A DNA stretch of 64,000 nt, taken from IMG/VR virus record IMGVR_UViG_2693429668_000006; one strand, given 5' to 3'. This document shows positions 215 through 56,450 of this stretch, piece by piece; the first letter of the stretch is position 1; the number at the start of each line of letters is the position of its first letter. A program made the translations under genes and the position numbers. A model generated the notes under the pieces. That model saw nothing but the letters and a program-made list of their open reading frames with translations. It searched no databases and was not told where the DNA came from. Origin of the DNA: a virus. Its lineage: Duplodnaviria > Heunggongvirae > Uroviricota > Caudoviricetes.

Positions 215-235
215 TTAAACAAGTTGTTTTCTTAT
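215..235 (-). promoter_or_regulatory. class-B palindromic motif TTAAACAAGTTGTTTTCTTAT (candidate operator/promoter)
   Basis: one of 7 near-identical copies 20-45 nt upstream of minus-strand start codons. Confidence 0.4.
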
Positions 236-495
236 TGGCTTTATTGTGATGTGGCATAAAAGGGGAGCAAGCTAAACGTAAAGGTGCAAACTCTCTATTT
301 CGGTCAACGAAACACAAGGGCCATTTGGCCCTTGTCATTAACACGTTGCTTTACGGACTAGCGGATAAGCGAAGTAGATCGCCAGACCAATGAGGACGCC
401 ATCAGAAATGACAGACATCATCTTTCCCGTAAAATCCACCAACACCGCTATCACCAGAAGAGCAATGACGGTCACAAGCCGGAATCTCTCAAGCA

Positions 496-921
496 TTAGA
501 GATAAGCATCCAGTGACAACTGAAGCGCCTGGGCGATCTTTTTCAGCGCCTGCTCTTCTGGTTCATCAATGCCGTCCTGGTCGGCAATATCAAGGCACAG
601 ACACAGTACATCTACTGCATCATCAGTCCCGGCCACATCCGCCAGCTCACGTAAAGCCTGGGCATTAGCACGGCGCGGTGAGGCTTCGTATTGAGCGCGG
701 ATATTGGCGCTCATCTGGGCAATCTCACCAGCAAAAGGAGAAAATGCAGGCAGAGCTGCAATTGTTTTCTCAAGAATGGAAATTTCTTTTGCATCGCATG
801 TACCGTTGGCATAGGAGATCATGTACCCGCCCCACACGGTGGCTTCAACCGCATCACGGTTCTCCATTTTTTTGACTTCGATAACAGCTTTACGAGTTTT
901 CTTTTTGAAGAAACCTAACAT
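496..921 (-). CDS. hypothetical protein (141 aa); weak TerB-like resemblance in acidic C-terminal part
   Basis: ORF with conserved initiation context at 921; motif DQDGIDEPEE; class-B motif upstream. Confidence 0.45.
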   Translation of the reverse strand: MLGFFKKKTRKAVIEVKKMENRDAVEATVWGGYMISYANGTCDAKEISILEKTIAALPAFSPFAGEIAQMSANIRAQYEASPRRANAQALRELADVAGTDDAVDVLCLCLDIADQDGIDEPEEQALKKIAQALQLSLDAYL

Positions 922-945
922 GTGTTTTCCTTTTGCTATTTGTCA

Positions 946-961
946 AAACAAATTGTTTTCT
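946..961 (-). promoter_or_regulatory. class-B palindromic motif AAAACAAATTGTTTTCT
   Basis: AAACAA/TTGTTT inverted repeat upstream of start at 921. Confidence 0.4.
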
Positions 962-1014
962 GGTTACATAAATTGCTTACGCAAAGACGGTCAATGCATA
1001 TGCACTAACAACCG

Positions 1015-1203
1015 TCAGAAATAACCAAGTACCGAACCGACTGGAAAAATAAAAATCCCAACTACACGAGCCAAGGTCATGCCAGCCTGAAACTGGAGAT
1101 CACCTGAGCAAACGAGTTTTATAATGTTGGATACCCAACCGGCGGCCATGAGAGCCAGAATTGCCAGCCAAATTTTCCCAAAGTGATTTGAAAGCCAGTT
1201 CAT
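1015..1203 (-). CDS. small membrane protein (62 aa)
   Basis: hydrophobic ORF, two predicted TM segments. Confidence 0.4.
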   Translation of the reverse strand: MNWLSNHFGKIWLAILALMAAGWVSNIIKLVCSGDLQFQAGMTLARVVGIFIFPVGSVLGYF

Positions 1204-1212
1204 ACAACCACC

Positions 1213-4052: not shown

Positions 4053-4073
4053 GATAGGTAAGTATATACCTAT
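4053..4073 (-). promoter_or_regulatory. class-A palindromic motif GATAGGTAAGTATATACCTAT
   Basis: recurrent motif family (13 copies) just upstream of minus-strand genes. Confidence 0.45.
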
Positions 4074-8890: not shown

Positions 8891-8913
8891 AGATAAGTAA
8901 TTACTTATTCATC
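8891..8913 (-). promoter_or_regulatory. class-A palindromic motif AGATAAGTAATTACTTATTCATC
   Basis: immediately upstream of thyA RBS. Confidence 0.45.
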
Positions 8914-9994: not shown

Positions 9995-11137
9995 TTACAG
10001 GTCTGCAAACTGGCTTAGAGAAGCCTTGTCCACGGTAGAATCGATCTGACCTACCAGATATGTGCTTTGCTCTGCCTCTTGTGGTGCAATTTGCAGTGTG
10101 TCGGTTAACAACCACTTGTTCATCCAGACCAGCGGATCTGTGGTAACTTCTGGAAATAAAGCCTTCAGGCCAAGACGATTCATAGCCAGATTGGTGCGGT
10201 ATTTTACATAGGTCTTCAGAATATCCGCGTTTAAACCAATCATCGAACCGTCTTTGAAGAGATAGTCTGCCCAGTTCATTTCTTGTTCGGCGACTGATTT
10301 CATGGTGTCGTAAATGACGTTTTCTTCATCAGCAGCAATCTCTTTCCACAATAAACCTTCGCGACCGGTACGCATGAAGCGGATCATGCGTTCAGTTCCT
10401 TCGCAATGCAGAGCTTCATCACGGGCAATAAAGCGCATAATTTTGGTGTTACCCTCAAGCAACTTCCGTTCGCCAAAGGCAAACGTACATGCAAAACTTA
10501 CATAGAAACGGATCGCCTCAAGCGCATTAATGGACACCAACGTGCGGAAAAGCTGACGGTGCAAAGGGTATGGCTCCCAGCCATATTCATTTACGTACAG
10601 ACGTTCAAACTCTTTCTCACCTAACGACTGGCGCTCGCAGGTCATCCTATAAAGCCTGTCATATTCAGCAGAGATACTGATCGCTCGGTTGATGATTTCT
10701 TCATCCGTAACAATACCGTCAAAAACAATACTCGGATCGTCCACCATGCCACGAATAATGTGGGTGTAGCTGCGGCTATGGATAGTCTCAGAGAAAGACC
10801 ATGTTTCAACCCACGTTTCCAGTTCAGGAATAGAGATAAGCGGCAGCAGCGTTGCATTTGGGCTACGTCCCTGAACTGAATCGAGTAACGTTTGATAACG
10901 GAGATTGCTCAGAAAAATGTGACGTTCGTGGTCCCGCAGCTTCGTGTTGAAGTCGATACGATCGCTCGAAATATCAACTTCTTCCGGCCGCCAGAAGAAA
11001 GACAATTGACGTTCAATCAACTTTTCAAAATCACGGTATTTTTGCTGATCGTAACGTGCCACGTTGACAGATTGTCCGAGGAACATAGGCTCTTTGGTTG
11101 CATCATTAGCACCCAAACGGAACGTTGAATATGACAT
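9995..11137 (-). CDS. nrdB: ribonucleotide reductase class Ia beta subunit
   Basis: di-iron/tyrosyl radical region [19 protein letters not shown]; RNR small-subunit length. Confidence 0.85.
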
Positions 11138-11165: not shown

Positions 11166-11187
11166 TTTAAACAAGTTGTTATCTTAT
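11166..11187 (-). promoter_or_regulatory. class-B palindromic motif TTTAAACAAGTTGTTATCTTAT (plus partial second copy 11191-11200)
   Basis: upstream of nrdB start. Confidence 0.4.
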
Positions 11188-11243
11188 GTGTTTAAACAAG
11201 GCTTACAAATCAAAGAGAAGGTGGGGATATCCCCCACCATATG

Positions 11244-13605: not shown

Positions 13606-13625
13606 TAGATAAGTACTTACCTATC
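13606..13625 (-). promoter_or_regulatory. class-A palindromic motif TAGATAAGTACTTACCTATC
   Basis: upstream of nrdA. Confidence 0.45.
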
Positions 13626-18288: not shown

Positions 18289-18312
18289 ATAAGTAAGTAT
18301 ATACCTATTTAT
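18289..18312 (-). promoter_or_regulatory. class-A palindromic motif ATAAGTAAGTATATACCTATTTATC
   Basis: upstream of sbcD. Confidence 0.4.
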
Positions 18313-19075: not shown

Positions 19076-19274
19076 ATGTCATTTTTCTGTGATTGTTAGC
19101 CGAGGCAACGATAACCCACCAGGTGCGCCGAAGGTAGTAAATGCCTGTTTTAATTATTCACATATCCACAGGATAGATCCTAATAAAGAGATCCATAGAT
19201 AGATCCTTATATAGATCAAATAAGATCCCCGATCGCTGTAAGCCGCGCCACGACTGGTCTGAAGTCATGTTCAT

Positions 19275-22602: not shown

Positions 22603-22626
22603 TTTTAAACAAATTGTTTTCTTAAT
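22603..22626 (-). promoter_or_regulatory. class-B palindromic motif TTTTAAACAAATTGTTTTCTTAAT
   Basis: upstream of gene starting at 22590. Confidence 0.4.
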
Positions 22627-22681
22627 AAGATAATTGCGATAAAAAAGGCGTCCAACTGGACGCCTGAACTTTTTAGGGGAG

Positions 22682-35980: not shown

Positions 35981-38089
35981 TTACTTCAAAATGATACGAG
36001 ATAGTTCAGTAACTACAGATGAACCAAGACTATCAACACTAGTTACCAGGGCATGATTTGCGTAAAATCTCTCCGGTGCATCAGTCATGATGCCAATTGC
36101 CATCAAATCAATGTCAGTCTGCGTTTCAATTTGCTTCGTAACCGAACGCAAATGGGCGTCAAAACCTCTCCCAACAGCCCACGGCGCGCCATCACTCAGA
36201 ACAAGCATGATCTTCCTGTCCTCCAAGCGACCGGAAAATAACGATGCAAGGCTGGCTATGCTTTCACCATCCACGTTATTAAGAAGTGGGAATGTGTAGC
36301 CTACGCACCCCATACGTGAGCGAACTTCGCGAGAATTTGCTTTTTCATTCCAATTTTTGATGATAGGTAGCATTAAAGATTCAAAGCGAGAGAACTCATA
36401 TTTGATAGCCTTAAGTTCTCCTGCTGCCATATGACTGCCAAATGTAGTGAAGCCGGTGATAATGTTGGGAACATTTATTCGATCAAGTGCATCGGCGATG
36501 GTATATGCACTTGCAAGAGCTAGTTTTATCGTTTCGCCACTCATTGAACCCGATAAATCAATCACTTGTTGAACACAGGCGTTAACGGCTTTAGATTCTT
36601 CTTTTTTACGAAACACGCGATCATCATTCATTGTTAATCTGTAGATACTTGAACCATGAATGCGCCCCCGACGCTGGCCAGGTATAAACTGAACTCTGTT
36701 TCTGCTTGCTATTGCACGTTCCAGGTCTTTTGCCAGCGTCGACGAAACACCTGACGAAAGGTGCTTTTCAATATATTTGTCGAAGAGCTGGTTGCCTTCA
36801 GGAACGATGCGATAACGGCTGATTGGATATCCACCTAAATCAATATCGGAGAATGTTTTAATAAGCCGTTTGATATGGGCTTCTGCCTGATCAATCGAGC
36901 CGATGAAGTCGTATGAGCGATTGTATGGCCTGTATTCGCTTTTCGAGCTTTCTGTTAACTCGCTTTTAATCGTTTCGGATAGCGCATCTTCTGTCATGCC
37001 TCCGACTTCATCTTCCATGCTATCCAACTCCTCTAAAGCCTCTTCCAGACTCATTTTTGACGGAGTTGGAATGTCTGAAGAGCCGTCTTCTGTCGATTTT
37101 CTTTTTTCGTGGTCAGTGGTAAATGATTCTGACGCCGCGTTATCAGAAGCACCAGAATCTGATACCTCTTTATCATTTTCTGTATCATCGAATATTGTTT
37201 CTGATGATTCAGAATTATCTGAATCATCACTGTCGTTATTATCATGTTTGTACTTACTGTGTGATTCTGATTTGATAGATTTGTGATTATCTAACGCTGA
37301 GGGTGTCTCATGATCTTCGTTGTCTTCATTGTTTTCTCCAGAGGCATCCGTCTGGTCAGCGTCTGAAGGATCGGAAGTTTTTCCCGGAGCTGACTCCTTA
37401 CCTTTGCTTTCACTTTCAGTGTCTTTGAGGATCTTAGCTATGGTCGCAGCCACCTTTACACAATCCTCGGTGCAAGACATGTTACGCACGGCCACATCGA
37501 TACCATGTTCTTTTAATAATGAAATTGGTTTCTCAATGACAGGCCAATATTCATCCATGAAATCTACGAACGGTGCTTGGCCATCCCAGGCTCTTACAAC
37601 CGGACAGAGAAAGAAGTTTAGAAAAAGCGCGCGCTGATCTTTGCCACAATAAGCAATAGCCTCTGAAGCCTTTGTTTTAAAGACTTTTTCGATTATAAGG
37701 CGCTGAGTTGCCATCAGATTACGTCTTGTTCCGTTAAAGACCTGACCCATTTTTCGCTCGATGAACACGTCTTCTAAGGCATTCCATAGCGACCAGGAAG
37801 GAACGCGTCCTTTTTCTCTCATTTTGTTGGACACACGAATATCGGTAAACAAAATGTGAGCAACCTCATGATCGAGAAATCCGCGCACAGCATTCATCAA
37901 TGCCGGTGTTGCGTTATCCGGGATTGATGGGATGTTTACGAGAATTGGCTCTCCATCATCGTTATAGCGTACATAAGCGTCGTCCCCTCGTTCTGCAACA
38001 GGGATGTTTTTACCTGAAAGGAGAGCGACTACTCGTTTTACACTGTCACGGAAGTCCTGAACCTCTTTGATGGAACGTTTTTTAGACAT
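35981..38089 (-). CDS. von Willebrand factor A (VWA) domain protein (CobT-like partner of AAA+ ATPase)
   Basis: C-terminal MIDAS motif DLSGSMSG; long acidic Ser/Asp-rich linker. Confidence 0.6.
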   Translation of the reverse strand: MSKKRSIKEVQDFRDSVKRVVALLSGKNIPVAERGDDAYVRYNDDGEPILVNIPSIPDNATPALMNAVRGFLDHEVAHILFTDIRVSNKMREKGRVPSWSLWNALEDVFIERKMGQVFNGTRRNLMATQRLIIEKVFKTKASEAIAYCGKDQRALFLNFFLCPVVRAWDGQAPFVDFMDEYWPVIEKPISLLKEHGIDVAVRNMSCTEDCVKVAATIAKILKDTESESKGKESAPGKTSDPSDADQTDASGENNEDNEDHETPSALDNHKSIKSESHSKYKHDNNDSDDSDNSESSETIFDDTENDKEVSDSGASDNAASESFTTDHEKRKSTEDGSSDIPTPSKMSLEEALEELDSMEDEVGGMTEDALSETIKSELTESSKSEYRPYNRSYDFIGSIDQAEAHIKRLIKTFSDIDLGGYPISRYRIVPEGNQLFDKYIEKHLSSGVSSTLAKDLERAIASRNRVQFIPGQRRGRIHGSSIYRLTMNDDRVFRKKEESKAVNACVQQVIDLSGSMSGETIKLALASAYTIADALDRINVPNIITGFTTFGSHMAAGELKAIKYEFSRFESLMLPIIKNWNEKANSREVRSRMGCVGYTFPLLNNVDGESIASLASLFSGRLEDRKIMLVLSDGAPWAVGRGFDAHLRSVTKQIETQTDIDLMAIGIMTDAPERFYANHALVTSVDSLGSSVVTELSRIILK

Positions 38090-38106: not shown

Positions 38107-38124
38107 GAAAACAAATTATTTACT
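38107..38124 (-). promoter_or_regulatory. class-B-like motif GAAAACAAATTATTTACT (degenerate)
   Basis: upstream of VWA gene start. Confidence 0.3.
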
Positions 38125-38187
38125 AGTGTGTTTAATGTAGCACTGCGCGAACAGGGAACTAAGCCATTCGCGCAGGGAGAAGAGGGG

Positions 38188-38400: not shown

Positions 38401-38651
38401 TCAATCAATCCATTCTAACTTATACTATGGTAAGGAATACTACTAAAATCTATATCAATACTGAATACATTCATATCATATGCAAGTTGATTTTCTTACC
38501 TGTTTTGGGCTAATTTTTCTCCGTGCAATGGCCTTTAACCGGTCTTTTAAGTGCCTATCGAAAAAAATGATAATAGCTTTACAACCCTAACCTTTGATGT
38601 AATATCGGTAAGCACTTACCAGAGAGAATTGAACGCGCAAAGGTTGTAACC

Positions 38652-39038
38652 ATGTCTGATAACAAGATTGAATTTATAGAAAGTCGCTACGCTGCTTTTA
38701 TCGCAGGGTTGATTGAATCCTCACCTATGAGCCAGGCCCAGATAGCCAAAACAATTGGGTATAAAAACGCCAACAACCTTTCTTTAATTAAAAGCGGCAA
38801 AATTCCTTTGCCTATCGATAAGGTTCGTCCGCTGGCGCTGGCACTGGGCATTGAGCCAAGTCGTCTTATGATGATGGTGCTGGAAGAACGCCAACCCGAA
38901 CTCGCAGCATTTTTATACAAAGAAGGCACTGCTCCTCTTAACGAGGACGAAAAACAGGTTCTTGCTGCATATAACGAGCGATTCGGTAAAGAGAAAGGCG
39001 CATCACAAAAGGTTGTTGAGGCCATAAAGTCTCTATGA
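38652..39038 (+). CDS. HTH DNA-binding regulator (XRE-like)
   Basis: helix-turn-helix segment SQAQIAKTIGYKNANNLSLIKSGK. Confidence 0.5.
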   Translation: MSDNKIEFIESRYAAFIAGLIESSPMSQAQIAKTIGYKNANNLSLIKSGKIPLPIDKVRPLALALGIEPSRLMMMVLEERQPELAAFLYKEGTAPLNEDEKQVLAAYNERFGKEKGASQKVVEAIKSL

Positions 39039-40592: not shown

Positions 40593-40648
40593 GTTTACCT
40601 CATAATAATTATGTGTTACTTAACCAGAAAATAAATATTACTATAAAA

Positions 40649-40670
40649 GATAGGTAAGTAAAAACCTATT
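40649..40670 (-). promoter_or_regulatory. class-A palindromic motif GATAGGTAAGTAAAAACCTATT
   Basis: upstream of glutaredoxin gene. Confidence 0.45.
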
Positions 40671-40731
40671 TAATGTCTGCAATACATCGTAAACTTGCCT
40701 GTTAATCACAACTTAATTTAGTTAATATTTA

Positions 40732-42060
40732 ATGCAACTAACAATGGTAAGTACGAGAGCATACATGCCTGTTTTTATTTCTGTTGCAATTCTAATGTTT
40801 TCCATAATAATTTTGTTTTTAGGTTTACTACTTGAGCCATTTCAAGATTGGAAGGTTACAGACCAAATTGCTGTATTGAGTAGTTTTATAACGACAGCGG
40901 CTTTTTGTGCAACAGCGTGGAACGCCTATGAAGCAAGAAAAAGTGCAAAGGCAGCACTGGAGGCCGTTAGGATAACTACCGATTCATTGATTGAGATGAG
41001 AAAAAATTCTTTCAAAGAATGGTTTGACACTTTATTAAATCAGCATGATGAGTTGTACAATAATGTCATACCAATCATTGAACAGACAAAAAAACAATTT
41101 AATAAAAATGAAATGCATTCGTTTTTTTATCCATTGGTAAGAAAGCATGAGGTTATTCAGTACATAAAACATATTACCAATATATTAGTCTATGTAGATA
41201 ACCGATTTTACATAGATGGAAATTGTTTTGATGAAAAAATGGAATATATTATTCAATTGAGTGGAAAAATACCACCGCAAATGAAGTTGGTTATTGCAGT
41301 TTTTGGATTGGACATCGATTCTCGTGAACCGCTGGATTCAAAAAAACTGTATGCTTTATTAAATAAATATGATTTTTTCAAAGATGAAATATTCTTTGAT
41401 GATGCTTATTCAAGCATGCCTGAAGTAGAGCTATTTATAAAGGATAGATTTGATAAAATATTTAAAACCAAGATGTTAAAATACTTTTGGAACGTGATTA
41501 AGGAATATTATTCTCAAGTTGAAGTCAAAGAAATCTGGGTGGTTCGTCGTCCGCAAGTTGCTTCATCGGTATTAATGAACTACCAAACACCATTATCTGG
41601 TTTAATTGATGATTATTTTAAAAATTTGCCAAATGAGGTAAAGAGCATTTTTGATGAAGCACTAAAAAAAGCTAATGATAGTGTTACGTCTATTGATGAC
41701 TATATTCATCGTTTGATCGGTTGCAGAGTCGCGTCGATTTCAGAGCATGTCCATTTCGAAAGTGAAATACTGAGTAGTGAAAAGGATGTGAAGGATATGA
41801 TTAAAAATTACATAGAGCAAAGAAAAACTGGAAAAAATGCGGTAAATCTTGGGCAGTTATATTTCTCGAGTGAGTCAGATGTAATTACAGGTGATCAGTT
41901 GAGTGATGCGATCGATGAATATGAGAAAAAGTTGGCACTTATGGCAATAAACGATAATGATGATAGTGATAACCTATTGTGCCATATCTATATTAAATCA
42001 TGTGAGATAGTTGATGAATATAAGCGTGAAACATTAAAATTGGGCGAGTACGCACAATAG
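40732..42060 (+). CDS. AT-rich membrane-anchored hypothetical protein (442 aa)
   Basis: N-terminal TM helix (and possible second), large K/E/D-rich soluble domain, markedly AT-rich codon usage, opposite strand to backbone. Confidence 0.55.
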   Translation: MQLTMVSTRAYMPVFISVAILMFSIIILFLGLLLEPFQDWKVTDQIAVLSSFITTAAFCATAWNAYEARKSAKAALEAVRITTDSLIEMRKNSFKEWFDTLLNQHDELYNNVIPIIEQTKKQFNKNEMHSFFYPLVRKHEVIQYIKHITNILVYVDNRFYIDGNCFDEKMEYIIQLSGKIPPQMKLVIAVFGLDIDSREPLDSKKLYALLNKYDFFKDEIFFDDAYSSMPEVELFIKDRFDKIFKTKMLKYFWNVIKEYYSQVEVKEIWVVRRPQVASSVLMNYQTPLSGLIDDYFKNLPNEVKSIFDEALKKANDSVTSIDDYIHRLIGCRVASISEHVHFESEILSSEKDVKDMIKNYIEQRKTGKNAVNLGQLYFSSESDVITGDQLSDAIDEYEKKLALMAINDNDDSDNLLCHIYIKSCEIVDEYKRETLKLGEYAQ

Positions 42061-42311
42061 GTTGTGCAGATTCGAAGCCTCTTTAAATTTTGCGCTGAAA
42101 ATTGTTATTTTACGGTAAGTAACGCTGTTTTCAGCGCATAAATGTCAGTGAATAATTTGATGCTTGCTGTAACGATGGTACGCTACGTAAAATCCGATAT
42201 TTATGAGACTGATTGCAGGTAAGGACTTACATAGCGCACAAAAATTGCTGATACCAGATGCAATATATGTTTAATGTCAAATTTTAGATAGGGGCGTATA
42301 CGCCCCTGTCA

Positions 42312-42866
42312 TTATTTTATTTTATCTTCTTCTAAACGAGAAAATTTAAATTGTTTATCGGTGATGGTGAGTAGTGTTACACCTTCCTTTTCGTGTAAAA
42401 GACCGGCACCGTTTGACACCATAATCAATCTATCCTTCCCTCGAAAGATTTCATAATATTTACCAGCTCCACAAGTTTTAGTTTCAATACAGTCCATGCC
42501 AGATACTGCTTCTCTGTTAAAAACACGATCTTTTGTAGCAACGGGTTTTCCGTACTCCTTTGTCAGCATTTCACTTATCTGGATGAATGTATACTTACCA
42601 ACATTACTGGTTAATGACATTTCGACTTTTCCGTCGATCAGGTTGCCATTCGTATGCGGTTCTTTTTCAGTCGGACTATTTTTATCTTGAAGAATAAACA
42701 CTTCAACATTTTGTGTTAGCTTCTTGAATTGGGCTTTATAATTTTGTTCAAGTTCACTTTTATCTTTGCCTATTAACGTTAATTCATCTATTTCAGATTC
42801 GTTACACCCTGTTAGTGTTAACGCAATTATTAGAGATGCGAAAATATTGAGATGGCACTTCTTCAT
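42312..42866 (-). CDS. lipoprotein (184 aa)
   Basis: signal peptide with lipobox LTGC; AT-rich. Confidence 0.55.
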   Translation of the reverse strand: MKKCHLNIFASLIIALTLTGCNESEIDELTLIGKDKSELEQNYKAQFKKLTQNVEVFILQDKNSPTEKEPHTNGNLIDGKVEMSLTSNVGKYTFIQISEMLTKEYGKPVATKDRVFNREAVSGMDCIETKTCGAGKYYEIFRGKDRLIMVSNGAGLLHEKEGVTLLTITDKQFKFSRLEEDKIK

Positions 42867-42982
42867 TAATTTGTCTCCATGTTTAACTGCTGCGATCTAA
42901 TCAGGAACATGAAGGCAGTCTAACGCTGCCTCGGATCAAAGCGATAAAACGATACGTGAATATAACTAAGTGTCAACAAATC

Positions 42983-43159: not shown

Positions 43160-43246
43160 TGGCGGAGAGTAATGGAATCGAACCATCATCGTTTGCACAA
43201 TGGGACGGTTTTCAAGACCGCTTGAGCACCATGCTCCCTACTCTCC
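43160..43246 (-). tRNA. tRNA-Ser (anticodon UGA)
   Basis: 87-nt cloverleaf with encoded CCA, anticodon loop CUUGAAA, long variable arm, T-loop TTCGATT. Confidence 0.8.
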
Positions 43247-43540
43247 AATTGTGTTGTGTGCTCCGTTTCGTGGAGCTAACGGCGGGTGATCAGACCGCAC
43301 CAGGTTGGACGTATTTCAGCGTTATGCTGTTGCAAGAGAGCCAAATTGTGATGGCCGGTGCTGATCTCCGGCATTGCCTACGTTAGCGGCCTTCAGGCAG
43401 TTCATCCGCTTGCTTCTACGTCGCACATCAGCCTGTGCATTCACCACAATGTTGAGAACACTGGTTGTCACGCTGCAACGCAACATTATATTCATAAATT
43501 GGGATATGAACCCGTTACGCCAATGTTCTCAATATTATGT

Positions 43541-43616
43541 TGGTGCCGGTTAACGGACTTGAACCGCTGGCCATTTGCTTACAAAGCGACTGCTCTACCA
43601 ACTGAGCTAAACCGGC
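43541..43616 (-). tRNA. tRNA-Thr (anticodon UGU), two mismatches in anticodon stem
   Basis: 76 nt; acceptor/D/T arms canonical; loop TTTGTAA; possibly pseudo-tRNA. Confidence 0.6.
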
Positions 43617-43620
43617 AATT

Positions 43621-43707
43621 TGGTGGGGAGTGATGGAGTCGAACCACCCGAGTCGCAATGACAGTAGATTTACAGTCTACACCGCTACCTCTACGGACTA
43701 ACTCCCC
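43621..43707 (-). tRNA. tRNA-Tyr (anticodon GUA)
   Basis: 87 nt; anticodon arm GTAGA-CTGTAAA-TCTAC; long variable arm. Confidence 0.8.
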
Positions 43708-43712
43708 TAAAT

Positions 43713-43787
43713 TGGCGATGGTGGGTGGATTCGAACCACCGATCAGTTGGTTAACAGCCAACTGCTCTACCGCTGAGCTACACCATC
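43713..43787 (-). tRNA. tRNA-Asn (anticodon GUU)
   Basis: 75 nt; anticodon arm GTTGG-CTGTTAA-CCAAC; T-arm GGTGG-TTCGAAT-CCACC. Confidence 0.85.
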
Positions 43788-44545: not shown

Positions 44546-44567
44546 GATAAGTAAGTAAATACTTATC
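44546..44567 (-). promoter_or_regulatory. class-A palindromic motif GATAAGTAAGTAAATACTTATC
   Basis: upstream (minus-strand sense) of the structured noncoding region and tRNA cluster. Confidence 0.4.
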
Positions 44568-48068: not shown

Positions 48069-48089
48069 TTAAGTATGTATCTACTTATC
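48069..48089 (-). promoter_or_regulatory. class-A palindromic motif TTAAGTATGTATCTACTTATC
   Basis: upstream of gene starting at 48027. Confidence 0.4.
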
Positions 48090-48152
48090 ATTTTAGGTGC
48101 AATAGTTCTTTATACTAAGATGCCGGGCATATCCTCAGCCCAGCATTCACCT

Positions 48153-48566
48153 TTAATGAGCTACAGCCTCACTGTTGCACATCTTTCTGTAGACCTGCTT
48201 ATAACGCTGTAAATCATGAGGATCATTAGGTGCCAACGACTTCGATAGGATTTTGTATACCACCCCTTTTGAAAACATGCCCTTTGGCTTCATTTCGAGT
48301 TCAACAACATATGAGTGATAGCCCACGTATGCACCAAAGCCATTTTTGGCGTTTAATTCACCACACACAAAGCCTGTCACACTCCCATCATCATGATCAG
48401 TCCTGACAAACTTATCTTTCCTAAACATCACCGACGTGGGATCTTTCATATCATCCGCAATTGCCTGTTGGCCCAGAGTAATAGCCTTCTCGTCTGTAGG
48501 CTTACACCCAACTAATGCAAACAACGACAATAAAGCACCTGTTAAAATCAACTTCTTTTTGCGCAT
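48153..48566 (-). CDS. lipoprotein (137 aa)
   Basis: signal peptide with lipobox LVGC. Confidence 0.5.
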   Translation of the reverse strand: MRKKKLILTGALLSLFALVGCKPTDEKAITLGQQAIADDMKDPTSVMFRKDKFVRTDHDDGSVTGFVCGELNAKNGFGAYVGYHSYVVELEMKPKGMFSKGVVYKILSKSLAPNDPHDLQRYKQVYRKMCNSEAVAH

Positions 48567-48793
48567 TTTGACTTCCCTTTATTTATATTTATCGTAGGTA
48601 TTAGTTAACCAAAACACGAGCCGTGTCACAATAATTCCATAGCTCATTATTTCCATCAGTGATTAATATCACATCAACTTTACAGTTCATAAATTATCAA
48701 AGCTGACAGATTAACTAAATTTAAGTACCCTTTTCGCACACTTGACGCTTGCCGCGTCTAAACTGTTCATCCTATATCAACAGAACATAAAAT

Positions 48794-50047
48794 ATGAAAC
48801 TCATAAAACCTTCATCGTTGCTGGCATTAGCTTTGCTTTTCGGCCCTGGATACGTTAACGCAGATAATAAACAAACGCTGATCGACGCCGCCACCGCAGG
48901 AGATACCACAGCACAAAGTGCGTTAGGGACAAATTATTTGGATGGGGCTAATGGCTTTGATGAGGATTTAGTAGAGGCCAAGAAGTGGATCGATCTCGCC
49001 GCAGAAAAGGGAGATAAAGTAGCATATTATGCGCTTGGGGTTATGTACACAATTGGGAAGGGAGTAGATAAAGATCTAAATAAGGCCGTTGAGTACTACA
49101 AACTAGCAGGAAATGCTCGCAACGGCAGTGCTTACCATAATCTTGCCGTTATATACGAACGAGGTTGGACTGGAAAGGAGGACCCAGAAGCTGCTTTAAA
49201 ATATCACAAACTAGCAGTAGAAGCTGGTGATATACCTTCGCTTGCCTATATGGGATATTTATATCAATACGGTAAGGGAGTTCCGAAAGATTACAAGAAA
49301 GCATTTAAATCTTATAAAAAGGCTGCGGATAGTGGAAATGCCGCAGGAATGTATGGGCTAGGCTCTATGTACGACGATGGTGTTGCTGTTAAGCGCAACA
49401 ATAAAGAGGCAATTAAGTGGTACTTGAAAGCAGCTGAATTAGGAAATAATAACGCCATGAGCGCGCTTGGATACAAGTTGATGCATGGAGAAGGTATAAA
49501 AAAAGACTATTCGAAGGCCAGAAGTCTTTTAGAACAAGCAATCAGCTTAGGAAATGATTATGCCATGAACCACCTTGGTTACATGTATCTTAAGGGATTG
49601 GGCGTCAAACAGGATTATCGGAAAGCATCAGAGCTTTACCAAGCTGCTTGCGATAAAGATGACGAAACGGGCTGCGAAAACGTTGCTGCAATGAAAGCAA
49701 AAGGTACGTTCCGTTCGCCTTCAAAACAGCAAAATGCCAAATCTGACACTCAGCGACTTATTGCTAAATCCATTGATAAAGGCGTTAACGCAACATTTAC
49801 CTGGCAGGGTGATGATGCCGTCTTCACCGCTAATGATGGCAAAGTTGACTGCACCTTCTTGAAGGATTTTTCAGAGAAAGGAGGCAATCTGGCTACCTCG
49901 TTTGTTTGCACCGATAACGTTCAAATCATCCTGAAGCAATTCAGAGATACCAAGAATGCCTACCTCGCGGTAATGACTGACAACTTCAACACAGAAGTTA
50001 AATCATTTTCGGTCAATGTTTACGTGACTAATACTGGTTCAAACTAA
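48794..50047 (+). CDS. secreted Sel1-repeat (TPR-like) protein
   Basis: signal peptide; tandem ~36-aa Sel1-like repeats (A..LG.MY..G.GV.KD...A..WY.KAA). Confidence 0.65.
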   Translation: MKLIKPSSLLALALLFGPGYVNADNKQTLIDAATAGDTTAQSALGTNYLDGANGFDEDLVEAKKWIDLAAEKGDKVAYYALGVMYTIGKGVDKDLNKAVEYYKLAGNARNGSAYHNLAVIYERGWTGKEDPEAALKYHKLAVEAGDIPSLAYMGYLYQYGKGVPKDYKKAFKSYKKAADSGNAAGMYGLGSMYDDGVAVKRNNKEAIKWYLKAAELGNNNAMSALGYKLMHGEGIKKDYSKARSLLEQAISLGNDYAMNHLGYMYLKGLGVKQDYRKASELYQAACDKDDETGCENVAAMKAKGTFRSPSKQQNAKSDTQRLIAKSIDKGVNATFTWQGDDAVFTANDGKVDCTFLKDFSEKGGNLATSFVCTDNVQIILKQFRDTKNAYLAVMTDNFNTEVKSFSVNVYVTNTGSN

Positions 50048-51220
50048 TGCTGCTATACCTTTTACCTTGCTTAAAAGTTCAAGCTGTCGTGAGTAAGGTT
50101 TTGCGCAATAGTAGGCTTTGATAATCTGCCCCGGTGTCGCATCGCCGGGGTCGAGTCCTTCCTCGCCCAAACACGCAACTTTGACATTAAGACCAATACT
50201 GGTCAGTCGCCTGGCTGCGGCCATCGTGTTTCGTATAGCTTGCTTTTCACTATCCCACATCATGATCACATTACGTAATCCACGCGCCTTGAGCGTCAGG
50301 AACGCGCCCAACTGATCTTCTGCATCCTGAGTGGTGTTGCCAGATAGATGCATCCCGAACGTTCCTATTGGCTCCACGTAATCACGTAATGTTTCTTCGT
50401 CGAAAATAGCTCGTTTGACCCCCATAACATCGAACGCACCCTCACAGACAACTACAGTCTGTTTGCCGACTGCATTATGGCCGTTGTAGAGAAATTTACC
50501 TGAAGCTGGAAGCTGCATAGGAAAGAGGTAGCGGCGTTCTGCTGTACCGGTAATGTCTCGTCCCTGAAATGTCTTCATTACCCCATCCAGATCGTAAACC
50601 GGTATCAGTATTCGCATATCGAATATCTGCCCTTTTACCTGATCTGTATACGGATCTACATAAGCGTGCTTGCCTTCGACGCAGTATCGTAGGTCAAAAT
50701 ACTTTGCCATTTCAGGTGATATGTTTCGTTCAACCAGATAGTCTGGAAGACGGCCATCTATAGGAAGCTCGTAATGACGAGGGAGTGCAACTGGCCCCTC
50801 TAACTCGACTGTGCTTGCAAGCACTAGCTCTTCTTTCTTTGGTGTCCACCCCTGGGAAAGAAGAGCGTTCTGCACATATTCCTCGAACTGTCGTCGTGAT
50901 TTACCGCTGTAGTGCTTGAGGAAGACCAGCTTATTGAACTGAATCTCTTCGGGATGATCACCAGCGAAGCATTTGCCGACGCCACTGGTCAGATTGAAAT
51001 ATACCTTCCAGTTGGAGCTGCCGCATACCGGACACTCTTTGATATTCACTTCACGACCGCGAGCACTCACGCCTCCACGTCGATAAACGATACCTTCAGT
51101 ATCCAACCATTGTTCAAAATCTAATTCGGCAATTAGCTCTTTCAGCTCGCTCACGATAATTCCACTTTTAACAGGCAATATTGTGACCAACCTAAATGTT
51201 GATATAACATAAAGGCTCAT
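50039..51220 (-). CDS. DnaG-like DNA primase (zinc finger + TOPRIM)
   Basis: zinc-binding CPVCGSSNW...GKCFAGDH; TOPRIM VVVCEGAFDVMG / MWDSEK; ATG at 51220 with conserved initiation context. Confidence 0.7.
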   Translation of the reverse strand: MSLYVISTFRLVTILPVKSGIIVSELKELIAELDFEQWLDTEGIVYRRGGVSARGREVNIKECPVCGSSNWKVYFNLTSGVGKCFAGDHPEEIQFNKLVFLKHYSGKSRRQFEEYVQNALLSQGWTPKKEELVLASTVELEGPVALPRHYELPIDGRLPDYLVERNISPEMAKYFDLRYCVEGKHAYVDPYTDQVKGQIFDMRILIPVYDLDGVMKTFQGRDITGTAERRYLFPMQLPASGKFLYNGHNAVGKQTVVVCEGAFDVMGVKRAIFDEETLRDYVEPIGTFGMHLSGNTTQDAEDQLGAFLTLKARGLRNVIMMWDSEKQAIRNTMAAARRLTSIGLNVKVACLGEEGLDPGDATPGQIIKAYYCAKPYSRQLELLSKVKGIAALV

Positions 51221-51301: not shown

Positions 51302-52642
51302 TTAGGTAACGTCTAAGATTCGCTCAATGAAGCGCATTTGTTCGAGGTTTTGTTTAACGCGAATGCTGATCCCTCCCTGCTGGTTACGTGAACCGGCAAA
51401 GTAGAGACGAGCCTCTCCTTTCGCTTCTTCTTCTTCGGTTTTGTTGATCGTTATTACCAGGTCAGCAATACGTACTTTTTCGATGTTGTCGGCAGCGTGC
51501 ATCATTGTGGCAACTTCTGACGCGCCACCTTCACGGTTTGTCTGCGATGCCGTGATCCCAGCAACGTTATGCTTGTCATAAAGAGCACGTAAATCGGTGT
51601 AGATACTACGAATGTTGGCGCGATCATCACGAAGGTCATAACTGGCACGCATCAAATCTGCGTAGTCGACAACAACCATGTCAGGCACCATGCCGTTGGC
51701 TTTCATGCTGTTAAGCATACGGTCCAGATCTGCCGGTGACATACTTCCTGACGGACGCTCAACAACCCACAAACTACCAATCCCCTTAGAGGCTCCCAAC
51801 TCTGCCAACTTACGATGAACTTCATCGCGCCGTTCCACCAACTTGGACATTTCCGTCTCCGACAATCTTGCATCAAAACGGTCGGACAAAATGTTGGTGT
51901 GAACCTCCAGCGAGAGATACAGAACATTGTAGCCAGCAAGCGTTGCGTTTATGGAAAACTCGCCCATTGCGGTCGATTTACCGGATTTAGCGAACCCCAT
52001 GAAGAGCACCATTTCGCGCTTTGCCCAGCCTTTTTGGTACAGCAACCTATCGAGAAGAGGGAGTCCAGTTGTAATACTGTTTGGTACATACTCCTCTGAA
52101 GCCTCATATTCACGCGCTTTCAATCGCTCACTTGCGGAGGTGTAGTAGTCATAGATTCCGGTCGCTTCGTTCGATCCAATCTGCTGAACCTTGGCCATGA
52201 TTGCCATCGCCCCCTGAAAGTCGCCCTTCTCTTTCAGTTCAGCAGCCTTAATCAGAGCATCATCAAACGCTACGCTTTTTGCGAAGGTTGATACCTGGTC
52301 AACCATGTACGAGGTATCGGACAATTTTTCTGCAAGGATGCGCTTAAACGCAACAACAACATCGGCGAATAGTTCCTCACGGATAGTCTTATCGCGTTTC
52401 GCACGCTTAAGCATATCCAGAATTGCAGATGAAGAGGGCGCGCTCTTGTACATACGGTAATAGCCCGAAACCATATTAACCAATATGGCATTGGCCGCAT
52501 TGGCAAATTGGCTAGGCACAACCAGATCTCCCGCACGAGTAAGAAACTCGTGATCACGACAAAAATATGCCGTCAGTCTGTTCTGGAAATCTTCATCAAA
52601 CTCTTCGGACAGCCCGCGTCCTGTATGGCAAAGTTCGGTCAT
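51302..52642 (-). CDS. DnaB-family replicative helicase
   Basis: Walker A GFAKSGKST, RecA-like C-terminal domain, 446 aa. Confidence 0.75.
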   Translation of the reverse strand: MTELCHTGRGLSEEFDEDFQNRLTAYFCRDHEFLTRAGDLVVPSQFANAANAILVNMVSGYYRMYKSAPSSSAILDMLKRAKRDKTIREELFADVVVAFKRILAEKLSDTSYMVDQVSTFAKSVAFDDALIKAAELKEKGDFQGAMAIMAKVQQIGSNEATGIYDYYTSASERLKAREYEASEEYVPNSITTGLPLLDRLLYQKGWAKREMVLFMGFAKSGKSTAMGEFSINATLAGYNVLYLSLEVHTNILSDRFDARLSETEMSKLVERRDEVHRKLAELGASKGIGSLWVVERPSGSMSPADLDRMLNSMKANGMVPDMVVVDYADLMRASYDLRDDRANIRSIYTDLRALYDKHNVAGITASQTNREGGASEVATMMHAADNIEKVRIADLVITINKTEEEEAKGEARLYFAGSRNQQGGISIRVKQNLEQMRFIERILDVT

Positions 52643-52655: not shown

Positions 52656-52680
52656 TTTTTTAAACAAATTGTTTTCTAGT
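52656..52680 (-). promoter_or_regulatory. class-B palindromic motif TTTTTTAAACAAATTGTTTTCTAGT
   Basis: upstream of helicase start. Confidence 0.4.
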
Positions 52681-52685
52681 ATTAG

Positions 52686-53426
52686 TTAATTAGATAGGGG
52701 ATCAATAAACCGCCGTGCTTCTTCCAGTTCTTCTGGAAAGTGGGCGGAAATAAGGCGCTCTGGAACGATTTCCATTAGCCAGATAGCGGAGAAAATTGCG
52801 CGTATGCGCTTACTGCGAGGGATGGTGCGCAAACGCTCCAGAATCCACTCAAAATAGCTTTCCTGAATCGGGTTGAACTGCATGTCTCCCATATGCTTAA
52901 AGCTAACCAGAGAGTCATCCAGACGGGTTGTTGCGCGTCTGGCTAATTTCTCTTCAAATATCTCAATCAGTTCTGGCTGCCACAAATGCTGTGGGCGAGG
53001 CAGCTTGTCCCACAGACGTCGTGCAGCTGCGGAAAGAACAGTGGAGATAAAGTAGTCGTATGAGCAGCAATAGCGATCCGCAAACTGGCGTGCTTTCCAT
53101 AGCGACGTTTTATTAGCAGTCGACAACTCCTGATAAGGCAAGCGTTTTAACCCGGTGGTGAACGGAGCTGTTTCAAAGTGTTCACGACCGTGCGTCAGCA
53201 TGATATTTGAGTACTGACGTTTGTATGCCTCCGTAAACAGACAGGTGGCCATGAGAGGATGCATATCGCGGTAATCAAACCACTTCGTCTCAAACAGTTC
53301 AGCCTCGTCTTTGCAGCGCGACAAACCAATGTTTTCAGCAACCCACTTGTCCATAACAGCGGTATTCCACTCTGTCATGAAGTCGTACTGGTCGTTGTCG
53401 ATGGTATCGAAAAAGATTTGGCTCAT
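52686..53426 (-). CDS. hypothetical protein (246 aa)
   Basis: ATG at 53426 with AGGTGA RBS (track GTG start at 53435 rejected). Confidence 0.5.
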   Translation of the reverse strand: MSQIFFDTIDNDQYDFMTEWNTAVMDKWVAENIGLSRCKDEAELFETKWFDYRDMHPLMATCLFTEAYKRQYSNIMLTHGREHFETAPFTTGLKRLPYQELSTANKTSLWKARQFADRYCCSYDYFISTVLSAAARRLWDKLPRPQHLWQPELIEIFEEKLARRATTRLDDSLVSFKHMGDMQFNPIQESYFEWILERLRTIPRSKRIRAIFSAIWLMEIVPERLISAHFPEELEEARRFIDPLSN

Positions 53427-53437: not shown

Positions 53438-53459
53438 GGTAGGTAGTTACTTACTTATC
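53438..53459 (-). promoter_or_regulatory. class-A palindromic motif GGTAGGTAGTTACTTACTTATC
   Basis: immediately upstream of 53426 start. Confidence 0.45.
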
Positions 53460-53540: not shown

Positions 53541-53599
53541 GACCTGCTTCTGTATATACAAATAATAAGTAACTTATTAAATACATACGGAAGCAGGTC
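53541..53599 (-). terminator. composite hairpin element: 10-bp stem GACCTGCTTC/GAAGCAGGTC around 39-nt AT-rich loop
   Basis: second copy of the element at 3369-3427; directly downstream of KAP-like NTPase stop. Confidence 0.5.
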
Positions 53600-53607
53600 A
53601 TAATCTA

Positions 53608-55314
53608 TTAATGATTGAGTATTTTATTAACACGCAGCTTATTAAGTGTTGATTTTGAAGCAACTTCCTCCAAAGCTTCTATTGCTTTATCAGTGATGCT
53701 CTTCTGTTCGTCTGTCGGGTGTTGCATACCCTTGAACTTGAGCATAGTCTCTTCTACTAAATTCAAAGCATCCTGATCACAGGATAATATCCAGTTTACG
53801 TAATCATCTTTAGAAAAACTGTTAAGAATATTCACATCACTATGGTTAAATCTTCCACCAGCTATTTTTTTTATAATTTTATCTAAGTTATAGTCATCTG
53901 GATTTCTATCTTTCAATTTTTTTTCAATTCTGAAACCTAATTCTTCATTTCCGAAGATCTCTACTCGCAAAGAATTAAATGTAGCATACGCATTGTCTTT
54001 ATTAACAAAAGCATCTGCATATGCCTCTATAATATTATTACAATCTCTATCCAATTTGATTAGGACATTTATTAAACCTACGAACTGTCCAATTGGTATA
54101 CGCAACAGACTATCGTTAATTACGCGCTCAATTTGAAAAATAAACTCTGATTCATTATCTTTAAAAGAGTTTCTAAAAACATCCCAAATTTTATAAACCT
54201 CACATAAAACCCTATTATCTCTATATTGTTCATTTTTTTCTTTTATTATATTTAGAATATTGCTTTCAGAAGACACATAACCGTTCTTAAGGTAAAAATC
54301 TATATCATCATCGAAAGCACTTTCTGCTCGTTCATAAATAATATCAAGGCTATTAACAAATGAATATACAGAGTTAACTTCTTCCTTTTCATCTTTATCA
54401 TCTAACATATAGTCGAATGCATGTATATTTTTGATTGACTCCTTAAATGAAGCATAATCAACGCTAGGAACACCAAAATAGTAAACCACTGAAAATAAGA
54501 CCAATCTATTAATAAAACTTTCTCTAACCTTATCCTCTGCTAACTTTAGCACATCTCTAAATATAACTAGAGATGATTTTATTTTATTTAATATTCTAAT
54601 GTTTTTGATGTTTAAATCATTTGCTAGGTTTTTTAACAAAAGAAAATCAGGGTCAGTCTCATAAAAAACTTTTCTTAAGTTTTTCTCAGGCGTGGGATCG
54701 TATTTTATTTCCACATCAATTATTTTTTCTCTATACTCTAAAAACTGTTGTTGTGCAGTTTCTTCATGTAAGTTATCTTCATTTAATATTAGAACAACCT
54801 TGCAATTTTTTCTTCTTGCCAACTCATCAATTACCCCCATAATCTCTTTAATTTCTAGCGCACTACCTTTTCGTTCAATATCATCAATGCAAACCAAATA
54901 ATTATTAACAAATTTATACTCAAGAGATGACAGCAGATTATCAGTTTTGAACCCAAAAAAATCGTTCTTTCCAAAATGTATTAAAAATTTTGACAAGGAG
55001 TTGTATTTCAACCATCCCCAAAACCCATTTCTATAACGAATCATAGTTCGATCCGTTTCAGATAAAATCAGTTCTTTATATTTCTTTTCATTAATTGGTG
55101 TGGCACAATGATAAAGAGCTTTTTTAATGTCTCCAATAGAATTTATTCCAAACAAAGAAACATATGAATATGCATTAAAATCTAATTTTTTAGAATGTTT
55201 AGTATAAAAGCTATTCCAATAATGCGTTTTACCTACTCCCCAATTTCCTTTTATGACAGCAACCCGATGATCTGAGTCCAAAAAATTTTTTAAAAATACT
55301 TCTATCGATTCCAT
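53608..55314 (-). CDS. KAP-family-like P-loop NTPase (568 aa), AT-rich accessory gene
   Basis: Walker A GNWGVGKT (GxWGxGK[ST]), Walker B LVCIDDIERK (hhhhDD[LI][DE]R); strongly AT-rich. Confidence 0.55.
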   Translation of the reverse strand: MESIEVFLKNFLDSDHRVAVIKGNWGVGKTHYWNSFYTKHSKKLDFNAYSYVSLFGINSIGDIKKALYHCATPINEKKYKELILSETDRTMIRYRNGFWGWLKYNSLSKFLIHFGKNDFFGFKTDNLLSSLEYKFVNNYLVCIDDIERKGSALEIKEIMGVIDELARRKNCKVVLILNEDNLHEETAQQQFLEYREKIIDVEIKYDPTPEKNLRKVFYETDPDFLLLKNLANDLNIKNIRILNKIKSSLVIFRDVLKLAEDKVRESFINRLVLFSVVYYFGVPSVDYASFKESIKNIHAFDYMLDDKDEKEEVNSVYSFVNSLDIIYERAESAFDDDIDFYLKNGYVSSESNILNIIKEKNEQYRDNRVLCEVYKIWDVFRNSFKDNESEFIFQIERVINDSLLRIPIGQFVGLINVLIKLDRDCNNIIEAYADAFVNKDNAYATFNSLRVEIFGNEELGFRIEKKLKDRNPDDYNLDKIIKKIAGGRFNHSDVNILNSFSKDDYVNWILSCDQDALNLVEETMLKFKGMQHPTDEQKSITDKAIEALEEVASKSTLNKLRVNKILNH

Positions 55315-55365
55315 TGGTGTCTATCCTTCAACTCATATATTGGGCGTAACAAACGCCCAATATAA

Positions 55366-55725
55366 TCACCCTTTCTTCATCAACTCGCGTTTAATTTCAT
55401 CGGTACGCATCGTGACATCGGCAGCTGTGATCGCCTCGTTAAGTTTCACGATGTCCTCGATTTCCTGCGGTGTCTTCTCCGCAAGATGGAAAATAGCAGC
55501 ACGAATCACGTCAGAACGAGTGAACTTCTCGAAGCGAGGGATGAACTTCATCATCTCCAGCAGTTCGAAGTATTCGTCCTCCAGTGACATTGTGCGGCTT
55601 TTAATTTTCTCTTTGCCACGAGTCGGGCGTCCCTGTGGTCTGACTGGTTGGCGCAAAGGAGTTGTGTTCTTAGCCGGTGCATCAGGCTCTTTGCGCTTTG
55701 CTAGGTCACCCATTTTCATGGACAT
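55366..55725 (-). CDS. small partition partner protein (ParG/ParB-like candidate, 119 aa)
   Basis: translationally coupled downstream of parA; basic N-terminus. Confidence 0.4.
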   Translation of the reverse strand: MSMKMGDLAKRKEPDAPAKNTTPLRQPVRPQGRPTRGKEKIKSRTMSLEDEYFELLEMMKFIPRFEKFTRSDVIRAAIFHLAEKTPQEIEDIVKLNEAITAADVTMRTDEIKRELMKKG

Positions 55726-56393
55726 TATTCTTCTTCCTCCAGACTCAACAGATAATCTACAAATTCTTCAAACTCGGCTTCCGCCTTTTTGTCGCGCTCG
55801 CTACCGGTCATTTCAAAGATAGAACGACCAGACTCTTCCGCATCATCATAGACGTTGCGGTTATATAGATTGACTGGCGCAGACTCGATGCCAAACGTCT
55901 CAACAATCTCTTTAGCCGCCAGAATGCGAGACACTTGTGATGGCAAAGCCGGGCACTGGTTCATGACCGCGCGGACCTTCACTTTATCGTTTACATTACG
56001 AACATTGTCGATAATAGGATCGATGTCACGCAGAGATTTCAAATCACGACGCTTAGGACGAAGCGGGATAATGATAACGTCGGCCATCAGCATCGCTTGT
56101 CGCTGAATTTCGGAGTCAAAGCCACCAGCATCTACCACTACAAACTCAGCTCTACCCTGAAGCGATTTTAGGTGCTTAATGATGTCATCCTGAACGTATG
56201 CAAAAGGAATCAGCTCAAGGTCTTCGTTCTGTCGACGGTCTTCACACCAGCTTGTTGTCGTGCGCTGAATATCTATATCAGTGATATAAACCTTCTTCTT
56301 CTTTTTGACTTTCAGGCAAACGGCAATTTGCTGGGCAACGGTGGATTTGCCAGGCCCGCCCTTTGTGCCGCCAACCACAAAGATCTTGGTCAT
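55725..56393 (-). CDS. parA: ParA-family partition ATPase
   Basis: deviant Walker A VVGGTKGGPGKST; 222 aa small-ParA size. Confidence 0.8.
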   Translation of the reverse strand: MTKIFVVGGTKGGPGKSTVAQQIAVCLKVKKKKKVYITDIDIQRTTTSWCEDRRQNEDLELIPFAYVQDDIIKHLKSLQGRAEFVVVDAGGFDSEIQRQAMLMADVIIIPLRPKRRDLKSLRDIDPIIDNVRNVNDKVKVRAVMNQCPALPSQVSRILAAKEIVETFGIESAPVNLYNRNVYDDAEESGRSIFEMTGSERDKKAEAEFEEFVDYLLSLEEEE

Positions 56394-56425
56394 TGGAGAG
56401 TTCCCTTTGCGTCTATTATTATCGT

Positions 56426-56450
56426 CTGAAACAACTTGTTTTCTTATATG
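56426..56450 (-). promoter_or_regulatory. class-B palindromic motif CTGAAACAACTTGTTTTCTTATATG
   Basis: upstream of parA. Confidence 0.4.

Follow-up and report, generated by a model that had tools for sequence, protein, structure and literature searches.

The DNA stretch considered here (the window, 64,000 nucleotides (nt) of the IMG/VR virus record IMGVR_UViG_2693429668_000006) belongs, by megablast, to an SSU5/pHCM2-group phage-plasmid of E. coli. It carries seven copies of a short palindrome, named class B, which, judged from its conservation, its place just past predicted promoters and the silence of the genes behind it in the plasmid state, is most likely a repressor binding site, though probably not one for the helix-turn-helix (HTH) protein encoded at 38652-39038, which a first-pass annotation of this DNA had proposed as the binder. 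In the same megablast comparison most of the window matches Escherichia phage Cyrano (pLF82) at 98% identity, and the identity to Salmonella phage SSU5 is about 77-82%. Its relatives further include hundreds of non-mobilizable plasmids, ~110 kb in size, found in E. coli, Klebsiella, Enterobacter and Salmonella. The window is collinear with Cyrano from 81.4 to 21.7 kb, in reversed order and with a few segments replaced, and nearly all of its genes lie on the minus strand.

On balance, the evidence leans modestly towards an explanation in which class B is a double-stranded DNA operator of a conserved, element-encoded repressor; this grade is given to the whole explanation, candidate binder included. 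The operator would be a palindrome of 13 bp (16-19 bp with the AGA flank) situated directly 3' of sigma-70-type promoters, with its centre at about +14 to +16 or, at a few sites outside the window, over the -35 region at about -38. About 16 transcription units would be headed by it, including early, replication and nucleotide-metabolism genes, the leader of the terminase small-subunit gene (terS) and the partition (par) operon. A dimeric and highly conserved repressor, encoded by the element and present in the plasmid (prophage) state, would bind class B and block initiation or promoter escape. A second, lineage-variable operator family (class A/C), probably belonging to the integrase-adjacent HTH repressor, would work alongside it. 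The likeliest class B binder would be the protein encoded at 55366-55725, which would act on the par promoter as an autoregulator and on the other class B promoters as a silencer.

The class B palindrome and the predicted promoters around it

Class B is a 13-base palindrome, AAACAAnTTGTTT (also written AGAAAACAAnTTGTTTTCT), which reads ATAAGAAAACAAnTTGTTTAA on the gene strand. Searching with the pattern AAACAANTTGTTT and at most one mismatch gave seven matches in the window (Table 1), as against 0.48 expected from dinucleotide shuffles (mean 0.48 matches, maximum 3), which confirms the seven-copy recurrence reported earlier. All seven are written on the plus strand and share a single orientation. 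The full 21-mer, allowing up to three mismatches, occurs in five copies in the window versus 0.02 expected. A 23-nt weight matrix trained on other genomes only (SSU5, Klebsiella and Cronobacter) retrieved exactly the seven class B sites and two borderline hits, with a Markov expectation of 1.4; the borderline hits are at about chance level. The core had been described as a perfect inverted repeat, which is true of five of the seven copies, whereas those at 11169 and 38109 have one mismatch each.

Every copy precedes the start of a minus-strand gene, as had been claimed, with the palindrome centre 23-42 nt upstream of the ATG, the start coordinates given earlier being off by a few bases. The open reading frame (ORF) previously called a small ORF behind the copy at 215 turned out to be the 5' part of a CYRAN_87 homologue that an IS629 end interrupts. 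This gene is considered truncated because window bases 1-72 are the end of IS629 (IS3 family; 93-100% identical to Stx-phage copies) and Cyrano homology begins at base 70.

Table 1. Class B copies and associated features of the window
Feature	Position	Strand	Remarks
Class B copy 1, perfect	217..229	-	Gene-strand reading ATAAGAAAACAACTTGTTTAA; upstream of ATG at 198, truncated CYRAN_87 homologue
Class B copy 2, perfect	946..958	-	Upstream of TerB/TciA-like gene 496-921
Class B copy 3, one mismatch	11169..11181	-	Between nrdA terminator and nrdB (9995-11137)
Class B copy 4, perfect	22607..22619	-	Between terminator and CYRAN_58-like gene 22165-22590
Class B copy 5, one mismatch	38109..38121	-	Upstream of VWA/CobT-like gene 35981-38089
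Class B copy 6, perfect	52662..52674	-	Upstream of DnaB-like helicase gene 51302-52642
Class B copy 7, perfect	56429..56441	-	parA leader (parA 55725-56393)
Putative promoter of CYRAN_87 homologue	243..270	-	TTGCTC-16-CACAAT; -10 ends 13 nt before palindrome
Predicted extended -10, VWA gene	38134..38142	-	TGc-TACATT; ends 12 nt before palindrome
Putative weak -10, helicase gene	52689..52694	-	TCTAAT; ends 14 nt before palindrome
Predicted sigma-70 promoter, par operon	56457..56485	-	-35 TTTACA (56480-56485), 17-nt spacer, -10 TAGGCT (56457-56462)
Terminator-like hairpin	314..335	-	Upstream of class B copy 1
Terminator-like hairpin after nrdA	11220..11238	-	Copy 3 begins ~29 nt past its T-tract
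Terminator-like hairpin, then T-run	22646..22665	-	Directly upstream of copy 4
ParA-type partition ATPase, 222 amino acids (aa)	55725..56393	-	First gene of the sole lysogen-expressed operon headed by class B
Candidate (putative) class B binder, 119 aa, CYRAN_29 homologue	55366..55725	-	Immediately 3' of parA
HTH protein, CYRAN_45 homologue	38652..39038	+	Lysogen-expressed; link to class B unlikely
GGTAAGTGCTTACC palindrome, class A/C family	38610..38623		~30 nt upstream of HTH gene start codon
Class A/C sites, first part	4057-4070, 8894-8907, 13608-13621, 18294-18307, 23750-23763, 28539-28552, 35947-35962
Class A/C sites, second part	38607-38623, 44552-44565, 48074-48087, 53440-53453, 59025-59040, 63235-63250

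The genome-wide motif scan suggested in the first-pass annotation found 18 class B copies in the whole Cyrano genome, 18/18 of them in gene orientation and 15/18 fully intergenic, in a genome with an intergenic share of 13% (P = 3e-11). There are 15-20 copies per genome in Cyrano, SSU5 (20) and the Klebsiella and Cronobacter relatives. An unbiased count of exact 6-N-6 palindromes places class B first in all four genomes (Cyrano, 9; SSU5, 11; Klebsiella plasmid, 11; Cronobacter plasmid, 7 in 100 kb). In Cyrano it precedes the terS leader, parA, the helicase, VWA, nrdB and TerB-like genes and a small early-gene cluster at 93-98.5 kb. The terS leader (L001 57-125) contains two copies 25 bp apart; a GC-rich hairpin and a T-run come next, ahead of the terminase small-subunit gene, and this arrangement suggests late-operon control by repression plus antitermination. 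The same two-copy arrangement is present in SSU5 and pMT1.

Orthologous promoters keep class B while their flanks diverge. In a more divergent Klebsiella lineage with unrelated flanks it is kept at the parA and helicase promoters, at parA it is kept across six lineages, and the footprint as a whole is conserved in at least six. Y. pestis pMT1 (six copies) keeps it wherever orthologous regions survive. Palindrome counts revealed no class B in a Providencia plasmid, which does not have the architecture in common either and is too distant to help. The 34.6 kb of a Moellerella relative that were examined gave an ambiguous picture: parA has a half-conserved site nearby, whereas the helicase and VWA promoters have none.

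When the sites are aligned on the palindrome, a conserved T..A appears ~14 nt upstream. When a -10 weight matrix is scored at every offset for 69 sites drawn from five genomes, there is a sharp peak where the hexamer ends 14-15 nt upstream of the palindrome (mean -1.6 vs about -5 elsewhere), and a minor second peak at +37 represents sites where the palindrome covers the -35 region. TGnGATAAT-N13-palindrome is the reading at many sites of the early region, and at one early Cyrano promoter two class B copies 51 bp apart bracket the -10. If the usual 7-nt distance from -10 to +1 applies, the palindrome would occupy about +8 to +20 of the predicted transcripts. Since its distance to the -10 is fixed while that to the start codon is variable, class B is likely to function at the level of DNA and RNA polymerase.

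Alignment of 230 nt upstream of parA from six lineages leaves a sole conserved block, the -10 TAGGCT plus CACATAAGAAAACAnnTTGTTTTC; the TTTACA -35 is common to the four closer lineages only. With the weight matrix, the CYRAN_87 and helicase sites are moderate sigma-70 matches. A simple consensus scan called no promoter at any of the seven window sites; the weight-matrix calls there are weaker evidence. Three sites stand directly after intrinsic-terminator-like hairpins.

Expression in the lysogen could be followed in published per-gene RNA sequencing of the Cyrano plasmid prophage in LF82, given as normalised counts (PMC9928086, S1 table). For the first genes behind class B the median is 7.6, compared with a prophage background median of 9.8, and the genes at background level include early-region ones with near-consensus extended -10 promoters. 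The sole class-B-headed operon expressed in the lysogen is par (parA 50, next gene 89, third gene 55; PMC9928086). Because good sigma-70 promoters are silent and the palindrome is the only neighbouring element that they share, class B is read as a repressor operator; an exception such as par is expected for an operon that is autoregulated. The original proposal of prophage-state operators, for which lysogen transcriptomics had been named as a check, is supported in part: this silence, the fixed -10 spacing and the six-lineage footprint conservation agree with it, and the HTH binder that it put forward is not supported.

Ciprofloxacin induces Cyrano 39-fold. A stand-alone UmuD-like S24 peptidase of 129 aa (Cyrano L002 39311-39700, outside the window) is strongly expressed in the lysogen (148 counts) and has no counterpart in the SSU5, Klebsiella and Cronobacter relatives; SOS induction of Cyrano may involve it.

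Candidate binder encoded beside parA

The parA product matches Pfam MipZ, AAA_31 and CbiA above the cut-offs and PHROG 164 (ParA-like), and its match to NCBIfam ParA_partition (E = 2e-33) is below that model's cut-off. It is small and has no N-terminal DNA-binding domain. In the protein encoded at 55366-55725, an N-terminal tail that is basic and disordered precedes IKSRTMSLEDEY...FTRSDVIRAAI. Homologues as distant as 48% identity show hardly any variation in these segments, and in members as distant as 27% identity the core residues are still invariant or nearly so.

Of the small Cyrano proteins that show lysogen expression and are conserved throughout the four class-B-bearing genomes, CYRAN_29 (identity of 93/91/62% across the class-B-bearing relatives) and CYRAN_117 (58/52/36%) stand out. 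The CYRAN_29 homologue at 55366-55725 is favoured because it adjoins a small ParA, is lysogen-expressed, has invariant putative DNA-reading segments and is preceded by class B at its own promoter, where this palindrome is the only conserved operator-like element. It could tentatively be regarded as the best candidate for the class B binder and should not be taken as a finding. CYRAN_117 (92 aa, lysogen-expressed, with a ribbon-helix-helix-like pattern) was also considered and was downgraded; its putative DNA-reading strand varies, and SSU5, Klebsiella, Cronobacter and pMT1 do not keep the two-mismatch class B that lies on its first codons. For the 119-aa protein a ribbon-helix-helix fold was not confirmed, and no ParB domain was found in it; C119 and C120, the Cyrano genes with a ParB domain, are silent in the lysogen.

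Several observations weigh against the operator explanation or against this binder. A repeat array is the normal form of a type Ib centromere, and the region upstream of parA has no such array, only the single palindrome. The Moellerella relative keeps the core of the 55366-55725-type protein and yet is nearly without class B in the 34.6 kb examined. At three of the seven window sites (nrdB, CYRAN_58-like and TerB) sigma-70 matches at the expected spacing are poor. pMT1 keeps class B though it lacks a protein of the 55366-55725 type, which is a weak objection since pMT1 is a recent derivative; as a natural experiment this plasmid, with six class B copies and no parA partner protein, was set aside as uninformative, being a recent degenerate derivative.

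Two dispersed silencing systems could be envisaged, in which the partition partner would bind the universal class B and the HTH repressor would bind the lineage-specific class A/C; this arrangement is possible and is put forward with caution. If it is true, the partition module would also silence, genome-wide, about 16 promoters of early, replication and packaging genes, the class B sites would act as a dispersed centromere, and plasmid segregation and copy state would be tied directly to the lysis-lysogeny decision.

Alternative explanations and the class A/C palindromes

Class B could instead be part of a phage-specific promoter or a site for an activator or appropriator, such as the winged-helix-like CYRAN_123 (76-89% conserved, silent in the lysogen), with lytic-only transcription starts at or in the palindrome. 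The constant orientation to genes, the asymmetric flank, the position of several sites after terminators without a credible sigma-70 promoter, and the occurrence before early, middle and late (terS) units agree with this, and dependence on an activator likewise predicts silence in the lysogen. However, a near-consensus extended -10 located 14 nt upstream at many sites puts the palindrome at +8 to +20, which is no classical activator position, and the parA promoter is a normal TTTACA-17-TAGGCT promoter active in the lysogen. The flank holds little information (0.3-0.8 bit per position), and neither Cyrano nor SSU5 has an annotated phage RNA polymerase. As a general explanation this is rather unlikely; at the weak-promoter sites a phage-specific promoter or activator site is possible.

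The first-pass annotation had named the integrase-adjacent HTH protein at 38652-39038, a CYRAN_45 homologue, as a protein that might bind these operators, a role which now appears improbable. Its product is a weak HTH_19/phrog_8 regulator, and CYRAN_45 is expressed in the lysogen (96 vs a background of 9.8; PMC9928086). Genes of this type, always beside the integrase, are present in about 865 SSU5-like plasmids and missing from SSU5, which was isolated as a lytic phage, and one class B copy (38109) lies ~500 bp from the HTH gene. The divergent control region of this gene nevertheless contains no class B copy, unlike the promoter of the parA/55366-55725 operon, and carries GGTAAGT(G/A)CTTAC(C/T) in Cyrano, Klebsiella and pMT1. 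The recognition helix of the HTH protein differs between lineages (52-56% overall identity), whereas class B is invariant. SSU5, although it is without the HTH gene, has 20 class B copies; this last argument is weak, given the isolation of SSU5 as a lytic phage.

The HTH protein is better matched to the class A/C family of palindromes, which takes in the class A of the first-pass annotation, since such a palindrome is found at its own promoter, its recognition helix differs in a lineage where the motif changes, and class B does not vary. The family has the form GGTAAGTnCTTACC (a class A/C-type palindrome is also written GGTAAGTACTTACC) with a full consensus of roughly ATAGGTAAGTRCTTACCTAT, and spacing variants occur. 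Besides the HTH gene promoter, members of the family stand before nrdA, thyX, the holin gene, tail genes and other genes. In Cronobacter the motif becomes TAGGTAG..CTACCTA, with both arms altered at 13/19 sites, and the HTH recognition helix also differs there. From these patterns, class A/C is likely to be the operator set of the integrase-linked HTH repressor, and GGTAAGTGCTTACC is likely to be its autoregulatory operator. Classes A and B are not simple temporal classes, because nrdA carries A and nrdB carries B.

A host protein of enterobacteria exploited by the element might also bind class B. The motif is completely invariant in elements of Escherichia, Salmonella, Klebsiella, Cronobacter and Yersinia, but the Providencia plasmid does not have it, and in the Moellerella relative (Morganellaceae) it is mostly missing. 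The probability of this explanation is low: it would leave the par operon alone staying on without an explanation, and we know of no E. coli regulator with the class B consensus. A scan of a genome collection with GAAAACAANTTGTTTTC was uninformative on a host factor, the hits among the matches listed being scattered in unrelated taxa.

Action in RNA, either as a 5' untranslated operator for the FljA-family protein CYRAN_114 (encoded outside the window; Pfam Flag1_repress (FljA), E = 1e-80) or as a processing site, is the least probable alternative. FljA-like proteins block translation of fliC mRNA (PMC2652032), and the predicted start sites would place class B in the transcribed leader. An FljA-type RNA operator is disfavoured by folding, spacing and the fliC leader, and was rejected on these grounds: RNA folding gave no signal (minimum free energy -0.6 to -5.5 kcal/mol, z -1.9 to +0.06, arms mostly unused), it is the -10 distance and not the start-codon distance (23-42 nt) that is fixed, and nothing resembling class B occurs in the fliC leader of E. 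coli. In addition, copies at about -38 would fall outside the leader, variant sites have single-arm changes without compensation, and CYRAN_114 is weakly expressed in the lysogen (18 counts). The FljA-family gene itself (Cyrano L003 780-1301, SSU5_121) is 57-78% conserved across lineages, and its product may repress host flagellin translation as a lysogenic-conversion trait.

Known systems and variable parts of the element

The operator explanation invites comparison with phage-plasmids and operons in which palindromic or dispersed sites are known. Each operator of P1 is an asymmetric 17-mer to which a C1 monomer binds. The analogy with P1 made in the first-pass annotation applies to the architecture of dispersed operators only: as with P1 C1, one motif occurs at many dispersed promoters of a plasmid prophage whose downstream genes are off in the lysogen. 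Unlike the P1 operators, however, class B is a symmetric palindrome, two distinct palindrome families here share out the lytic promoters, and no C1-like protein was found among the candidates checked.

The palindromic operator O1 of the lac operon has its centre a short way past +1 of a sigma-70 promoter. The class B palindrome would similarly be centred just past the predicted +1, but lac O1 serves a single operon and class B a genome-wide regulon, and there is no sequence or protein relationship between them.

Omega of pSM19035 and ParG of TP228 are small proteins encoded beside a small ParA; they have a flexible N-terminal tail and repress their own promoter, and omega also represses other promoters as a global regulator. 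The 55366-55725 protein resembles them in being small, tailed and adjacent to a small ParA, and repression by it would be predicted. Omega and ParG bind arrays of short repeats (heptads or tetramer boxes), whereas class B is a single palindrome per promoter. A description of ParG/parH is given in PMC3130281.

The closest precedent for class B, if the parA-adjacent protein binds it, would be SopB of N15, with palindromic sites likewise scattered through a phage-plasmid. The N15 sites IR1-4 are palindromic and scattered (PMC7205306) and are coupled to phage gene expression (Ravin et al. 2008, cited in PMC11652158). N15 has a type Ia SopA/SopB system with GTGCGACCnnGGTCGCAC sites at four places. 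The par operon of the window does not encode a SopA/SopB pair of this type with a ParB-family HTH protein; the class B element has a small ParA (222 aa) and a 119-aa partner of no assigned fold, and there are 15-20 class B sites in a fixed promoter-proximal position.

By analogy, class B is most likely a dispersed repressor-operator regulon of a phage-plasmid with P1-like architecture, which departs in defining features from each of the P1, N15 and omega/ParG systems. The literature searched contained no description of lysogeny control in SSU5/pHCM2-type phage-plasmids or of the class A and class B motifs. The relevance of class B follows from the wide distribution of these elements: a plasmid collection holds about 800 records of this type (Klebsiella, E. 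coli, Enterobacter, Salmonella Typhi pHCM2 and, as a degenerate form, Y. pestis pMT1), and resistance genes can be carried by them (PMC9600943). An invariant operator would provide a regulon map, a handle for the repressor search and a sequence tag for recognising such elements, and it sets up the hypothesis that the partition module takes part in silencing of lytic genes.

The window also differs from Cyrano in several segments. A low-GC segment absent from Cyrano, 53604-55365, lies directly 3' of the par operon, with a gene for a P-loop NTPase of the KAP family (568 aa). Cyrano carries CYRAN_30 in the same slot, so the place has the look of a hotspot for variable cargo or defence genes. Another low-GC segment absent from Cyrano (40603-42982, GC about 0.35) replaces the region of CYRAN_43, the Cyrano gene with the highest expression in the lysogen (7084 counts), and encodes ORFs of 442 and 184 aa, neither with a Pfam match.

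Two further segments, 19263-21071 and 48088-50064, have no megablast-level alignment to Cyrano. The former covers the replication-initiator region, with a 404-aa ORF at 19277-20491 in place of the RepA of Cyrano, which suggests that the window element has a different rep allele. The latter holds a 417-aa plus-strand ORF adjoining the primase gene. Four tRNA genes (Ser-tga, Thr-tgt, Tyr-gta and Asn-gtt) are located on the gene strand at 43160-43787, and three (Asn, Thr and Ser) are annotated in the Cyrano record.

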